Shown here piece after piece: positions 7,891-11,328 of a stretch of 42,026 bases of DNA; position 1 is the first letter of the stretch, and every line of letters starts with the position of its first letter. This stretch comes from a virus. Its lineage: Duplodnaviria; Heunggongvirae; Uroviricota; Caudoviricetes. The notes under the pieces were generated by a model that was not told the origin of the DNA, ran no database searches, and worked only from the letters and a program-made list of their open reading frames with translations. The position numbers and the translations under genes are program-made. The stretch is taken from IMG/VR virus record IMGVR_UViG_2734482779_000005, positions 1 to 42,026 of that record. The stretch is one strand, 5' to 3'.

Positions 7891-8565
7891 TTAGGCCTTT
7901 ATTTTGTATCTTCTTGGTTTTCCTGAGAAAATTACTGTACCAATTATAGAGCAATTACCGTTGATCTTAATGTAAGGTTCAGGCCAGTTTGGGTTTAATG
8001 CTTTGAGGTAACGCTGTGTTCCATCTTCTATCAACCGCTTAAAGGTGGTTTCGCCTGTATCGTGCATCAATGCAATAACGTCGTCACCGTGGCAGGCAGG
8101 GACTTCAGGATCTACAAAAATCATGTCTCCCGGGCGGTACTCATCAATCATTGAATCACCAATCACCCGCAAGATATAAGTCATTTCGCCACAGGGTACA
8201 GGGCAGGGATAAGTTTCTGCTGTGCTCAAATCAACCTCAGAATAGCCAACTTCTTTCCATGCTCCGGCCTGTACCCATGATATGACAGGGACTAACGTTA
8301 TTTGTTTGTTAGTAATTGAAACATCAGGTTTTTTTGTGATGTTTGTTGTCTGGTGTTCTTGATCAAGCCATCCGACAGGCAGGTCGAAACATTTTTCGAT
8401 GTGCCGTGCCATGCTGTCACCGATATTTTTAGTAGCACCATCTCCCATAAACCTGCTGGTCTGGGTTGGCTCGCGATCAATCATGGTGGCAAAGGAAGAA
8501 TTCCCGCCAACACCATCTCTCAGTTTTCTGGCGTTAGACCGCCGGATGTCATGGACTGTTTTCAT
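7891..8565 (-). CDS. cI: CI-like prophage repressor (HTH N-domain plus S24/LexA-like autoproteolytic C-domain)
   Basis: 224 aa; C-terminal region (…LRVIGDSMIDEY…GDMIFVDPEVPACHGDDVIAL…) has the Ser/Lys peptidase S24 architecture; divergent from a Cro-like gene across an operator-bearing intergenic region. Confidence 0.8.
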   Translation of the reverse strand: MKTVHDIRRSNARKLRDGVGGNSSFATMIDREPTQTSRFMGDGATKNIGDSMARHIEKCFDLPVGWLDQEHQTTNITKKPDVSITNKQITLVPVISWVQAGAWKEVGYSEVDLSTAETYPCPVPCGEMTYILRVIGDSMIDEYRPGDMIFVDPEVPACHGDDVIALMHDTGETTFKRLIEDGTQRYLKALNPNWPEPYIKINGNCSIIGTVIFSGKPRRYKIKA

Positions 8566-8581
8566 AACGAAATTAAAACCT

Positions 8582-8600
8582 TTGTACCGATAGGGTACAA
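8582..8600. promoter_or_regulatory. Candidate OR operator: perfect 19-bp palindrome TTGTACCGATAGGGTACAA
   Basis: Read directly in the 90-bp cI/cro divergent intergenic region; further partial palindromes (tacatattgta) lie next to the cro-like start. Confidence 0.55.
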
Positions 8601-8887: not shown

Positions 8888-9451
8888 ATGAGGCTAACCG
8901 TGGGTAAGCATCACTGGAAAGTAGAAAAACAGCCTGAGTGGTACGTGAAAGCTGTCAGAAAAACTATCGCGGCGTTGCCGGGGGGTTACGCTGAAGCTGC
9001 TGAGTGGCTGGATGTAACAGAGAACGCTTTATTCAACCGCCTTCGTGCAGATGGCGATCAGATTTTCCCGCTGGGATGGGCAATGATTTTACAGCGCGCG
9101 GCTGGCACTCACTACATTGCGGATGCTGTCGCACAGTCTGCTGGTGGGGTGTTTGTATCGCTTCCTGAAATTGAGGAAGTAGAGAACGCCGATATAAACC
9201 AGCGCCTGCTGGAAGTCATCGAACAGATCGGGAGTTACTCAAAGCAGATTCGTTCGGCAATCGAAGATGGGGTAGTGGAGCCACACGAGCAGACAGCAAT
9301 TAATGATGAGTTGTATCTGTCAATTTCGAAGCTCCAGGAGCATGCAGCACTGGTCTACAAAATCTTTTGCGCTCCAGAAAAGAGTGACGCCCGCGAGTGT
9401 GCAGCTCCGGGCGTCGTGGCGTTTTGTGTCTGTGGAGAAACTAACGCATGA
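8888..9451 (+). CDS. Putative early regulatory protein (CII/YdaT-like position)
   Basis: 187-aa ORF immediately after the cro-like gene; family assignment not secure. Confidence 0.35.
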   Translation: MRLTVGKHHWKVEKQPEWYVKAVRKTIAALPGGYAEAAEWLDVTENALFNRLRADGDQIFPLGWAMILQRAAGTHYIADAVAQSAGGVFVSLPEIEEVENADINQRLLEVIEQIGSYSKQIRSAIEDGVVEPHEQTAINDELYLSISKLQEHAALVYKIFCAPEKSDARECAAPGVVAFCVCGETNA

Positions 9452-10284
9452 ACAGTTTAACGGCAAATAACCGTTTGTCGCAACAGCTGGTGGTCAGCGA
9501 CGCTGACCACCTGTTGTTACGGCATGAATGCAGATTACCAAATCACCTGGCTGTAAGTAACCACAGAGAACTTTACCTGACTGTGGGGGGCGAGTTGTGC
9601 AGGAACTTAACCGCTGGTTTCGTGACGGAAGAGGACTTTATGTTCATGTTATTCGTTGGGAGCCAGAAACACAGCGCGTTATCTATCTTCGCAAAGACTA
9701 CCCGCATGAGTGCTTTAGTCCTTTGTGGAAATTCAGGCGTGATTTTGTTGAGTGTGAAGGACCACCAGCACATTGATTCTGCCATTCCGGGACGTTACAC
9801 TGTTCAGGCACCTTATAAAGCGGGTGCCGGGATTGGCGTCCTGGAAATGTTATCGGCGATATATGACGCGCCAGCGTCTTTTTTATCGTCTGCGTCTGTG
9901 CACACCCAAATTATGGTGGGCTGGACGGGGGCACCGAAAGGTGCGCCGGTTTCCGATAACGCCGGTTACGCCAACCCCGTTCAGTTCACCACCAGCGAAA
10001 TTGGCGTTTCCGGTGGTGAAGGTAATTCACTGTTATCGGAGGCTGCCATCATGGCTACTGTCCCAGCCCTCACTCGTCTGAATGATGAAGACTTACATAA
10101 ACTCAGTTATGTAACAACTGCACTACGTGCTCTGCGCAAGGTAACTCTTTCGGATCCGCAGGCGCATCAGGTTTTGGTAGAAACCCTTCTTAACTTGCAG
10201 GCTGAACGTATTCGTCTGGCGGATAAGGCTAATTTTCATATTCACCGTCTCCTGAATATCAGCGGAGGGCATCGTCATGCTTAA
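9448..10284 (+). CDS. Hypothetical ORF (278 aa), coding status uncertain
   Basis: Longest ORF in the interval, but the N-terminal half is low-complexity and an alternative frame (GTG 9597 to tga 9776) gives a more protein-like 59-aa product; see findings. Confidence 0.25.
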   Translation: MNSLTANNRLSQQLVVSDADHLLLRHECRLPNHLAVSNHRELYLTVGGELCRNLTAGFVTEEDFMFMLFVGSQKHSALSIFAKTTRMSALVLCGNSGVILLSVKDHQHIDSAIPGRYTVQAPYKAGAGIGVLEMLSAIYDAPASFLSSASVHTQIMVGWTGAPKGAPVSDNAGYANPVQFTTSEIGVSGGEGNSLLSEAAIMATVPALTRLNDEDLHKLSYVTTALRALRKVTLSDPQAHQVLVETLLNLQAERIRLADKANFHIHRLLNISGGHRHA

Positions 10285-10513
10285 TCCGTTGATCCTCAAC
10301 ATTTACCGTTTATTTCAGCGTAAAAAAACATCAATTCCTACAGTTGGGCAGTGGTACACCACGCCTGCAGGGCATGTTCTACGTGTTAGCCTGGTTGACC
10401 GTGAATGTCAGAAGGTGATTTGTGAACCGCTGGGCCGTAATTACCGCGTCAGTATGCCGCTTATAGCCTTTCGCTCCGGAAAAAACATGAAGCATCTCGG
10501 AGGTGCAGCATGA
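10277..10513 (+). CDS. Small hypothetical protein (78 aa)
   Basis: ORF track; overlaps the neighbours by 4 to 8 nt in operon fashion. Confidence 0.35.
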   Translation: MLNPLILNIYRLFQRKKTSIPTVGQWYTTPAGHVLRVSLVDRECQKVICEPLGRNYRVSMPLIAFRSGKNMKHLGGAA

Positions 10514-11328
10514 GTATGGAGCTGATGGTTAAAGCGATGAAAATTCGAGTGGGTAATCCATTGCGAAAACTGGTTCTGATCAAGCTGGCTGATAATGCCA
10601 GCGATCAGGGTGAGTGCTGGCCCAGCTACCAGCATATTGCTGACCAGTGCGAGATTAGCAAACGTTCTGTGATGAATCATATTGCGGCCCTTTGTGAGTC
10701 CGGGCTGGTAAAAAAAGTCACCCGGAAAGGTGAAAAAGGTAACTCAAGTAATATCTATCTCCTTCATCTGGATGGTGCAGGAGATTCACCAGGGGGTAGT
10801 GCAAATAATTCACTATCTGGTGCAGCAAATTCACCAGGTAGTGCAGGAGTTGCACCAGGGGGTAGTGCAGGAGATTCACCCAGAACCAGTCACTCTTTTG
10901 AACCAGTCAAAGAACCAGTCAATGAACCAATAGCTGTTGGTGCATCTGCTGATGAGTCTGTGCGAGTTCGTTCAAACCGACCGGAATACTCTCCGGAGTT
11001 TGAGCAGGCATGGCTGGCATATCCCAAACGTGCTGGTGGCAATTCAAAATCTGCAGCCTTCAAAGCCTGGAAAGCCCGTTTGAATGAGGGGGTAAACCCC
11101 GAAACCATGCTGGAAGGTGTGAAACGCTATGCGGGCTGGGTATCTGCGATGGGTAACAGCGGCACACAATTTGTGAAACAGGCTGTCACGTTCTTTGGTC
11201 CGGATCGTCATTTCGAAGAATCCTGGGAAGTTCCTGCGGTATCTGCAGCCAGACGTGAGGACCCGTACTTCAAAGCCAGTTACGACAACGTGGACTACAG
11301 CCAGATCCCGGCAGGATTCAGGGGGTGA
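10510..11328 (+). CDS. Replication initiator (lambda O-like) with N-terminal HTH and internal iteron-encoded linker
   Basis: N-terminal …LRKLVLIKLADNASDQGECWPSYQHIADQCEISKRSVMNHIAALCESGLV… HTH; origin-like direct repeats lie within the gene, as in lambda O. Confidence 0.6.
   Translation: MSMELMVKAMKIRVGNPLRKLVLIKLADNASDQGECWPSYQHIADQCEISKRSVMNHIAALCESGLVKKVTRKGEKGNSSNIYLLHLDGAGDSPGGSANNSLSGAANSPGSAGVAPGGSAGDSPRTSHSFEPVKEPVNEPIAVGASADESVRVRSNRPEYSPEFEQAWLAYPKRAGGNSKSAAFKAWKARLNEGVNPETMLEGVKRYAGWVSAMGNSGTQFVKQAVTFFGPDRHFEESWEVPAVSAARREDPYFKASYDNVDYSQIPAGFRG
10775..10930. repeat. Candidate replication origin: five iterons (gtgcaggagattcacc family, spaced about 22 bp) followed by three copies of gaaccagtca
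   Basis: Direct repeats at 10775-10790, 10797-10812 (variant), 10820-10835, 10841-10856 and 10865-10880; gaaccagtca-type repeats at about 10884-10925. Confidence 0.6.

Follow-up and report, generated by a model that had tools for sequence, protein, structure and literature searches.

An open frame before the replication genes of an SfV-like prophage overlies a DUF4222 gene and an IsrK–C4 RNA module and is kept free of stop codons

Introduction

The stretch of DNA analysed here (the window) comprises 42,026 nucleotides (nt) of a Caudoviricetes genome, positions 1 to 42,026 of IMG/VR record IMGVR_UViG_2734482779_000005, and is an SfV / 2H10 / e14-like lambdoid prophage. A 278-codon open reading frame (ORF) lies after the cII-like gene ymfL and ahead of the replication genes. 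It is highly probable that this frame is a composite that overlies four units, namely a ymfM-like segment, a gene of the DUF4222 family, an IsrK–C4 RNA module and a 77-amino-acid (77-aa) ORF, and that the 'Ash' protein signature found in it is translated RNA. Comparative statistics show that stop codons are kept out of the long frame over the DUF4222 gene and over the RNA module, although the amino acids that it encodes drift freely.

An earlier note on this DNA had correctly recorded three overlapping ORFs, of 278 aa (9448..10284), 59 aa (9597..9776, with the peptide quoted) and 70 aa (9573..9785, minus strand), and had proposed that either the real genes are smaller than the ORF track suggests or a frameshift or pseudogenisation has occurred. 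The first proposal is borne out: the 278-aa ORF is not one conventional protein gene. The second is not, and the long frame, being kept stop-free, does not look like a mere accident either. None of IsrK, C4, DUF4222 and ymfM is new, and near-identical DNA is already public. Positions 9300-10600 share 98.8% identity with Escherichia phage 2H10 and 96.8% with SfV, and the stretch is present in 441 complete E. coli records at a coverage of at least 80%. Homology to relatives is mosaic, with breakpoints at 9598, 9772 and about 10065. The long frame and the units beneath it are the following.

9448..10284, plus strand: 278-codon open frame with ATG start; a composite, not a single protein family
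9448..9596, plus strand: 5' segment, a probable diverged homologue of the YmfM-family N-domain in the same frame (alignment of 40 +1-frame ORFs)
9597..9776, plus strand: 59-aa ORF (DUF4222) in a frame differing from that of the 278-aa ORF; GTG start, stop TGA at 9774-9776
9773..9801, plus strand: candidate promoter of the RNA module; -35 TTGATT (9773-9778), 17-nt spacer, -10 TACACT (9796-9801)
9808..9884, plus strand: IsrK-like small RNA, counterpart of P4 seqA (Rfam RF01394)
9909..9996, plus strand: C4 / CI-type antisense RNA (Rfam RF01695)
10001..10042, plus strand: downstream targets of C4, b2 (TTGGCGT, 10001-10007) and a2 (GTTATCGG, 10032-10039)
10051..10284, plus strand: 77-aa cargo ORF (MATVPALTRL...) with ATG start, in frame with the long ORF; the proposed C4-controlled gene

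Results

Two structured RNA genes occupy the middle of the long frame

The only Rfam matches in the whole window, isrK (9808-9884) and C4 antisense RNA (9909-9996), both fall within the 278-codon frame. The IsrK-like RNA scores 63.7 bits (gathering threshold 50) and consists of two 5' hairpins followed by an intrinsic terminator with its stem at 9865-9878 and a run of six U at 9879-9884. In an alignment of 13 sequences including P4, 92.3% of the cells are paired and seven pairs show changes on both sides. The C4 RNA gives a full-length match (1-87) of 82.8 bits (gathering threshold 45) and folds into a long closing stem around two hairpins. All 27 of its pairs hold throughout the 13 sequences, again including P4 (351/351 cells), with 13 pairs changed on both sides; none of 500 shuffles was as good, and slid controls were 34-49% paired.

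Two boxes of C4 are single-stranded, a' (CCGAUAAC, 9953-9960) and b' (ACGCCAA, 9968-9974), and each has two exact complements nearby. Box a' is complementary over 8 nt to GUUAUCGG at 9849-9856, inside IsrK (box a1), and at 10032-10039 (a2), whereas b' is complementary over 7 nt to UUGGCGU at 9833-9839, also carried by IsrK (box b1), and at 10001-10007 (b2). Box a2 overlaps the Shine-Dalgarno (SD) sequence GGAGG of the 77-aa ORF (10038-10042). The boxes are hypervariable in relatives, yet all three copies change together, in 12 combinations in a first set and 22 later; there are at least 10 a-box and at least 5 b-box specificity types, each matching at three sites. Mean energies of the cognate duplexes are -14.3 (a1) and -15.9 (a2) kcal/mol, as against -4.8 and -6.6 kcal/mol for non-cognate ones, a gain of ~9 kcal/mol. 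Variation in C4 box specificity, the logic known from P1/P7 c4 and P4 CI, also explains why the differences between SfV and the window are clustered in otherwise near-identical DNA.

The candidate promoter sits directly before the RNAs, its -35 hexamer overlapping the DUF4222 stop codon and its -10 hexamer ending 6 nt before 9808, where the module transcript would start. A sigma-70 scanner called no promoter here, as TTGATT/TACACT matches 8/12 consensus positions and the scanner needs 9/12. The assignment is based instead on positional conservation: the promoter block is invariant across aligned relatives, and the spacing between promoter hexamers and the IsrK 5' end is unchanged in VT2-Sakai, F004, Tyrion and P4 PLE. 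The same element is annotated in the Shiga toxin (Stx) 2 phage F004 as isrK and C4 non-coding RNAs followed by a coding sequence (CDS), and is intergenic in VT2-Sakai and Tyrion. The middle of the 278-aa ORF is two structured RNA genes, not a protein domain, and these genes, with their candidate promoter and their terminator, are the reason for its odd appearance. The earlier note had remarked on an odd, low-complexity N-terminal half, in which the low-complexity stretch is the hairpin at 9476-9524 described below; it missed the two RNA genes.

Some viral contigs carry two to three IsrK–C4–cargo modules in tandem, several of them at 656-nt spacing (loci L157 at 9881-11229 on the minus strand, L144, L151, L177, L179, L190, L198, L071/L072, L077 and L080-L086). 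Each module of L157 has a different a/b specificity and a cargo of ~120 aa, and together they look like arrays of heteroimmune antisense locks.

The 'Ash' signature is the conceptual translation of the RNA module

The 278-aa ORF matches Pfam Phage_ASH (PF10554) with 64.8 bits (gathering threshold 26) over residues 117-210. These residues correspond to nt 9796-10077, that is, to IsrK, C4 and the downstream targets. Differences in this stretch are flat with respect to the codon positions of the long frame (0.264/0.264/0.259), and the synonymous fractions of 30% in the long frame and 25% in each of the other frames were treated as equal. The Ash stretch does not evolve as a protein domain and displays no amino-acid selection.

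Phage P4 provided a control. There, PF10554 matches the old 'cI gene product (AA 1-137)' ORF, a C4 match (74.9 bits) lies inside that ORF with an isrK match (60.8 bits) just upstream, and the epsilon protein matches PF25738, not PF10554. The RefSeq entry of P4 (NC_001609.1) carries at 8168-8584, minus strand, a CDS named 'transcriptional repressor / cI gene product' over the CI RNA. The immunity factor of P4 is the CI RNA, and IsrK resembles its seqA (PMC4825925); a survey of P4-like satellites took PF10554 as the epsilon marker (PMC8628076). Several families that PHROG names 'transcriptional regulator' share the Ash pseudo-domain. What Pfam and PGAP recognise as 'Ash family protein' is the IsrK/C4 stretch in conceptual translation, and PF10554 is built on such ORFs; in the literature searched, we found no statement that PF10554 is a translated RNA locus.

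Annotations of the region disagree. SfV has the full 278-aa ORF (orf37) and 2H10 a 181-aa version, whereas PGAP gives two proteins whose genes share 71 nt, a DUF4222 protein at 9597-9776 and a 192-aa 'ash family protein'.

Amino-acid selection within 9597-9776 acts on the DUF4222 frame

The 59-aa ORF is a real conserved gene. Its product matches Pfam DUF4222 (PF13973) with an E value of 9.5e-14 and 51.1 bits (gathering threshold 27), residues 3-52 aligning with profile positions 4-51 of 53, and matches phrog_1343 with an E value of 1e-36; all 33 database clusters for the peptide are named DUF4222. The earlier note was right to single out this compact peptide, whose Pfam match, third-position bias and conserved start make it meaningful, and right about the G-run before its GTG. 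The run, GGGGGG at 9585-9590, precedes GTG 9597 as an SD sequence with a gap of 6 nt. The start position is kept in 49 distinct DUF4222 homologues, as GTG, ATG or TTG, each with an SD-like motif upstream.

The third codon position of the DUF4222 frame is the second codon position of the long frame, and the two frames can be told apart by where substitutions fall. Between the window and two Stx phages of ~77% DNA identity, 29/43 and 28/42 substitutions within 9597-9776 are at the DUF4222 third position; among 21 ungapped homologues, pairwise differences by DUF4222 codon position are 0.213/0.194/0.491. Phage cdtI and an Stx2c phage encode the identical peptide (100%), DNA changes notwithstanding; it is 83% identical in Stx1/Stx2_14744, where residues 48-214 of the long frame are only ~60% identical. 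Homology blocks in other phages begin at 9598 and 9772 and thereby bracket the gene. These data show that, within 9597-9776, amino-acid selection acts on the DUF4222 frame. The product is predicted to adopt a small SH3/Tudor-like beta-barrel fold.

Codon usage and GC content at third codon positions (GC3), the check that the earlier note had proposed, decided nothing in this interval: the codon-usage score was 0.073 for the long frame and 0.044 for the DUF4222 frame. This criterion, which even prefers the long frame over the RNA stretch, was set aside, and comparative data were needed because it could not separate the frames. The earlier note had also held that clear full-length homologues of the 278-aa product, with none of the 59-aa peptide, would speak for the long ORF. 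Full-length homologues (at least 80% coverage) were found in 17 phage records, all of near-identical phages, and it is the 59-aa peptide that has a Pfam family.

The 5' segment is a probable ymfM-like N-domain

The first 50 codons of the frame align with the N-domain of the YmfM family, a group of proteins with no Pfam family. This domain is ~56 aa long (..RLPQLRMIPVPG.PLFRYERR..NRWV.CNHSRA.. or the e14 / mEp390 types), and the window's residues stand in register with it (MNSLT.NNRL.Q...L.R.E.R..N....NH...VG) with key motifs degraded; phrog_1170, a 112-position profile, matches residues 48-98 only. In the YmfM family proper, differences in the N-domain are of the coding type (0.159/0.133/0.268 by codon position), and in the tail over DUF4222 the second codon position is the most variable (0.491). 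Between the window's 5' segment and its closest relative, locus L096 of C. braakii, the differences are 7/13/8 by codon position, which is no coding pattern.

YmfM-frame ORFs (the +1 frame relative to DUF4222) are 108-114 aa long with a conserved N-domain and end at DUF4222 codon 52-54. In 39/46 loci exactly 9 nt separate the stop, which merges into the SD sequence of the replication gene, from the ATG of that gene. The window and L096 are without the usual YmfM stop; the frame runs on, in the window into the RNA module. At about positions 1660-1680 of loci L097-L136, three features overlap within ~25 nt: the YmfM-frame stop (TA[GA]), which runs into the SD sequence of the replication gene, the replication ATG 9 nt on, and the DUF4222 stop 10-50 nt further. 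The DUF4222 C-terminus (..DHEH) is therefore co-encoded with the N-terminus of the replication protein (MSTKL..).

The part of the 5' segment that had appeared to be of low complexity is the following.

9476..9524, plus strand: imperfect hairpin formed by the 'low-complexity' QQLVVSDADHLLL stretch between ymfL and DUF4222 (folding energy -33.2 kcal/mol, z -5.7)

A hairpin of different sequence occurs at the same place in L096 (z -3.0), and the SfV version has one mismatch. The core at 9489-9511 had been flagged as terminator-like and was rejected as a terminator, there being no U-run after it. The hairpin could be an RNA processing site or a protein-binding palindrome.

In the prophage e14 of E. 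coli K-12, ymfL is followed by ymfM (112 aa, 'cell division inhibitor'), in the same frame as the 278-aa ORF. Inside it, in another frame, lies a 59-aa DUF4222 ORF (NC_000913.3 1204001-1204180) that is unannotated in K-12. This ORF has a TTG start with an AAGGAG SD sequence 8 nt upstream, and its last 20 nt pass the ymfM stop and overlap the ymfN/oweE start by 11 nt. Expression of e14 ymfM causes filamentation, and the published work cloned either the ymfM ORF or a larger fragment, according to the searched text of that report (bioRxiv 10.1101/2020.11.19.390815). All constructs described in that text also contain the DUF4222 ORF with its SD sequence, the exact-ORF clone replacing only the last six codons, and either frame may therefore give the active product. 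Controls specific to one frame were not found in the same searched text. The 59-aa DUF4222 protein may account, in full or in part, for the SOS-inducible inhibition of division that is ascribed to YmfM (SfiC) in e14. A conserved ymfM/DUF4222 overlap was not found described in the literature searched.

The long frame is kept free of stop codons

Selection on the openness of the long frame was assessed separately over the DUF4222 gene and over the RNA module. For the former, 47 DUF4222 loci were collected from different enterobacterial species. Through the first 52 codons, the +1 (YmfM/long) frame is stop-free in all 49 distinct genes while the +2 frame contains 1-10 stops; synonymous resampling expects the +1 frame to be open in only 2-8.5%. 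Codon choice displays the same avoidance. Val, Leu and Ile codons before a codon starting with A or G would produce a +1 stop if their third base were a purine; 211/214 have a pyrimidine there, and the other three yield TGG, a sense codon. At the same residues in harmless contexts, purine endings are found in 81/252 cases. The stop-avoiding third positions toggle between T and C.

An annotation-independent pattern scan for the RNA module returned 116 further modules, 62 of them distinct and of 22 specificity types. The cargo frame contains no stop for at least 315 nt upstream of the ATG in 62/62 modules, whereas of the other two frames one is open in 0/62 and one in 14/62, the latter (frame 2) including the window's 102-aa ORF. 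All modules are 276, 279 or 282 nt long. The six hypervariable boxes occur in 75 distinct variants, none of which introduces a stop into the cargo frame, as against 9 and 21 for the other frames. Stop-codon avoidance through an RNA module was not found described in the literature searched.

The module precedes interchangeable cargo genes

ATG 10051 and its SD sequence are kept in all relatives, and the sequences diverge after about codon 8. Beyond this point the cargos are unrelated and range from 41 to 397 aa; the cdtI and Stx1_14744 products are annotated as antirepressors (Ant-like). The window's own 77-aa cargo matches phrog_4908 and phrog_3960 and was found in only 17 phage records, with no Pfam or NCBIfam match and no distant phage homologues. 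An orf45-like AUG at 9913, at the 5' end of C4, lies 46 codons upstream of ATG 10051 in the same frame.

Discussion

A possible ribosome relay through the RNA module

The start of the 278-codon frame overlaps the ymfL stop (ATGA at 9448-9451), and its stop (TAA 10282-10284) overlaps the start of the next ORF (ATG 10277). By analogy with P1, P4 and Gifsy-1, the module promoter at 9773-9801 would make an IsrK RNA that ends at the intrinsic terminator, and read-through with processing of the transcript would yield C4, which would mask the SD sequence of the 77-aa ORF and block initiation. Untranslated transcripts from the module promoter would terminate prematurely before the replication genes, and the decoy targets in IsrK may titrate C4 or remodel the read-through RNA, thus counteracting C4. 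After induction, ribosomes coupled from ymfL on PR transcripts could translate the long frame through the DUF4222 gene and the RNA module and disrupt the IsrK terminator hairpin on the way. They would arrive at 10051 by elongation, not initiation, and therefore be immune to C4. Translation would then be handed on to the 78-aa ORF and the replication gene through the junctions ATGA 9448, ATG 10277/TAA 10284 and ATGA 10510. In loci without an RNA module, the relay would account for a YmfM tail that is unconstrained yet stop-free and ends 9 nt before the replication gene.

That ribosome read-through of the long frame is a coupling relay to the replication genes seems to us quite possible, if somewhat short of probable. 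The more specific proposal, that selection keeps one frame from the ymfL stop to the pre-replication genes as a relay overriding the IsrK terminator and the C4 lock that keep this DNA silent in a lysogen, is advanced tentatively.

Several observations weigh against the composite reading or its relay. Over the RNA stretch the long frame has a gene-like codon-usage score (0.333), which taken alone favours a protein, and the Rfam c4-a1b1 model stays below threshold in the window (21.4 vs 46.7 bits). Modules in other contexts (VT2-Sakai, F004 and Tyrion; the nin region and P22-like immI) contain 2-3 stops in the frame in question; the RNA module by itself therefore does not entail an open frame. 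Variants with the open frame share ancestry, so that the counts overstate independent events. Relatives without an upstream DUF4222 gene have a long ORF that starts at an ATG lacking an obvious SD sequence. Every downstream ORF has a good SD sequence of its own, and coupling is not strictly required. The transcript start, the RNA processing, the action of C4 and the read-through translation are all steps that we infer.

Other readings of the long frame

Four other readings were weighed. One that we consider unlikely, though it deserves serious attention, takes YmfM-like (N-domain and tail) and DUF4222 as two overlapping functional protein genes, with loss of the YmfM stop producing a fusion in the window. 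It draws on the coding-type evolution of the YmfM-family N-domain, on a +1 frame that is kept open and ends at a conserved place, and on the filamentation described for e14 ymfM in the searched part of the published work. The tail speaks against it, since the second codon position is its most variable and the sequence is thus unconstrained, as does the window's N-segment, which has no coding pattern against L096; and the constructs behind the filamentation, as far as that text describes them, also contain the DUF4222 ORF.

Rather improbable, in our judgement, is that the composite is the same but its long frame is open only by descent and GC-rich RNA sequence, never translated as a unit and unselected. 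The relatedness of the variants, the stops in modules elsewhere, the separate SD sequence of each downstream ORF and the openness of frame 2 over 14/62 module variants, the window's among them, would all fit such an accident. It does not explain why 0/75 box variants put a stop into the cargo frame but 9/75 and 21/75 do so in the others, why module lengths differ by 3 nt only, why stop-generating synonymous codons are avoided in 211/214 cases over DUF4222 with T/C toggling, or why the stop is conserved 9 nt before the next ATG.

A single regulatory protein with an N-terminal Ash domain, as the names given to SfV orf37 imply ('immunity region', transcriptional regulator, antirepressor), is very improbable and largely refuted. 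No close relative has the frame closed, its translation matches Pfam Ash and several of the PHROG families named 'transcriptional regulator', and the codon usage of its middle part is gene-like. The Ash stretch, however, has neither codon-position bias nor synonymous excess and holds a candidate promoter, an intrinsic terminator and two Rfam RNAs whose covariation is strong; selection sits on the overlapped DUF4222 frame, the parts recombine independently, and the P4 member of Ash overlies a C4-family match at what the literature knows as the CI immunity RNA locus.

Pseudogenisation or a frameshift, including a programmed shift at the G-run with fusion of DUF4222 to the upstream frame, is barely credible: the G6 run just upstream of GTG and the relaxed evolution of the 5' segment in the window lineage may suggest it, but alignments to relatives are ungapped with no indels, the 5' part is ymfM-like in the same frame, a start codon of its own is conserved in DUF4222, no slippery heptamer was seen to be conserved, and programmed frameshifting was rejected for non-conservation of the run, in whose place other lineages have AAGGAG, CGGAGGG or AGG.

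Comparison with known systems

The immunity region of P4 (PLE - seqA - CI RNA - seqB/seqC - nested kil/eta) has the same order and the same Rfam families as the window. IsrK is a structural homologue of P4 seqA, and the CI RNA causes premature termination (PMC4825925). Both the isrK-like element of P4 (8692-8615) and its C4-family RNA (8507-8420) lie downstream of the promoter. In P4 as in the window, the ORF drawn over the RNA matches Pfam Ash and the module stands upstream of replication genes. The two RNAs are 24 nt apart in the window and 107 nt apart in P4, and the P4 ORF does not cover the isrK-like part, unlike the window's. The window further differs in being a lambdoid host phage with the module inside the early-right operon and a 77-aa orphan ORF as cargo.

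In phages P1 and P7, the c4 boxes pair with upstream targets and with targets over the ribosome-binding site of the next small ORF, and heteroimmunity lies in box sequences that differ from phage to phage. Compared through the Rfam family and the literature, the immI locus (c4 - icd - ant; Citron and Schuster 1990, cited in PMC2864571) shares with the window a C4-family RNA, the boxes a'/b', and one target set upstream with another covering the ribosome-binding site. The window's cargo is not icd/ant, but relatives with the same module do carry Ant-like cargos.

The isrK - orf45 - anrP region of Gifsy-1 resembles the window in having an IsrK with its own promoter and a leaky terminator and a read-through ORF that begins at a C4-like 5' end, equivalent to AUG 9913 here. 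IsrK of Gifsy-1 pairs with a stretch that corresponds to the b'/a' boxes, and a stable processed RNA lies downstream of IsrK, as was reported together with the requirement of orf45 translation for the downstream antirepressor and with the conservation of orf45 in nucleotide but not amino-acid sequence (Hershko-Shalev et al. 2016, PMC4825925). For Gifsy-1, and only there, IsrK has been reported to bind Hfq and to activate the read-through mRNA in trans (PMC4825925). The orf45 frame of Gifsy-1 stops at the anrP start (AUGA), whereas the window's frame continues into the cargo and reaches upstream as well, across IsrK and the candidate promoter. In the Gifsy-1 study the RNA downstream is not interpreted as a homologue of C4, and IsrK is described as an activator.

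The ymfM gene of e14 (b1148, SfiC) follows ymfL as the long frame does, in the same frame, and its C-terminal half is an alternative-frame reading of the DUF4222 gene. Unlike the window's frame, it has a well-conserved N-domain and stops 9 nt before a replication-gene remnant; the window copy has a diverged N-segment, has lost the stop and is followed by the RNA module.

Neighbouring genes and rejected ORFs

The gene order of the region is cI-like, cro-like, ymfL, the region under study, the 78-aa ORF and a DnaD/O-like replication gene. The neighbouring and overlapping features are as follows.

7891-8565, minus strand: cI-like gene, first in the gene order
between the cI-like gene and ymfL: cro-like gene
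8888-9451: cII-like gene ymfL (Pfam Phage_CP76)
9573..9785, minus strand: 70-aa ORF, the in-register antisense frame of DUF4222; judged spurious
9773..10081, plus strand: third-frame 102-aa ORF spanning the RNA module
10277..10513, plus strand: 78-aa ORF (phrog_1153); its stop overlaps the replication-gene ATG (ATGA at 10510)

The minus-strand ORF exists as the earlier note had it, but as a gene it was rejected: it has no family match, and the same antisense frame is trivially open in 42/49 DUF4222 homologues because TTA, CTA and TCA codons are rare. The 102-aa ORF was likewise rejected, being without a family match and open in the window and 2H10 but closed in SfV; stop-free frames in a GC-rich RNA stretch can also arise by chance.

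The 78-aa ORF aligns weakly with DUF4222 (W..G..V......VI....PL..F; PHROG cross-match E 0.008, hhalign E 0.008 with a probability of 4.9%). It could be a very diverged second DUF4222-like gene, and it stands in the position that DUF4222 has in most other loci. Within the replication gene, direct repeats at 10775-10923 comprise four copies of a unit of ~21-24 nt, GTGCAGGAG(A/T)T(T/G)CACCAGG.., and three copies of GAACCAGTCA. They encode a low-complexity GDSPGGSA.. stretch and look like origin iterons in an O-like gene, as in lambda.

Implications

Hundreds of E. coli, Shigella and Stx-phage records carry translated IsrK/C4 genes under the labels 'Ash', 'transcriptional regulator' and 'antirepressor N-terminal domain', and several PHROG families contain the same annotation error. 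The ymfM/DUF4222 overlap casts doubt on which product gives the published YmfM filamentation. This overlap and the stop-free frame through the RNA genes would be clean cases of selection on being translated, not on the product. For the phages themselves, an antisense-RNA immunity module with many interchangeable specificities stands directly before the replication genes of SfV-like and Stx phages, and could be a second immunity layer relevant to Stx-phage induction.

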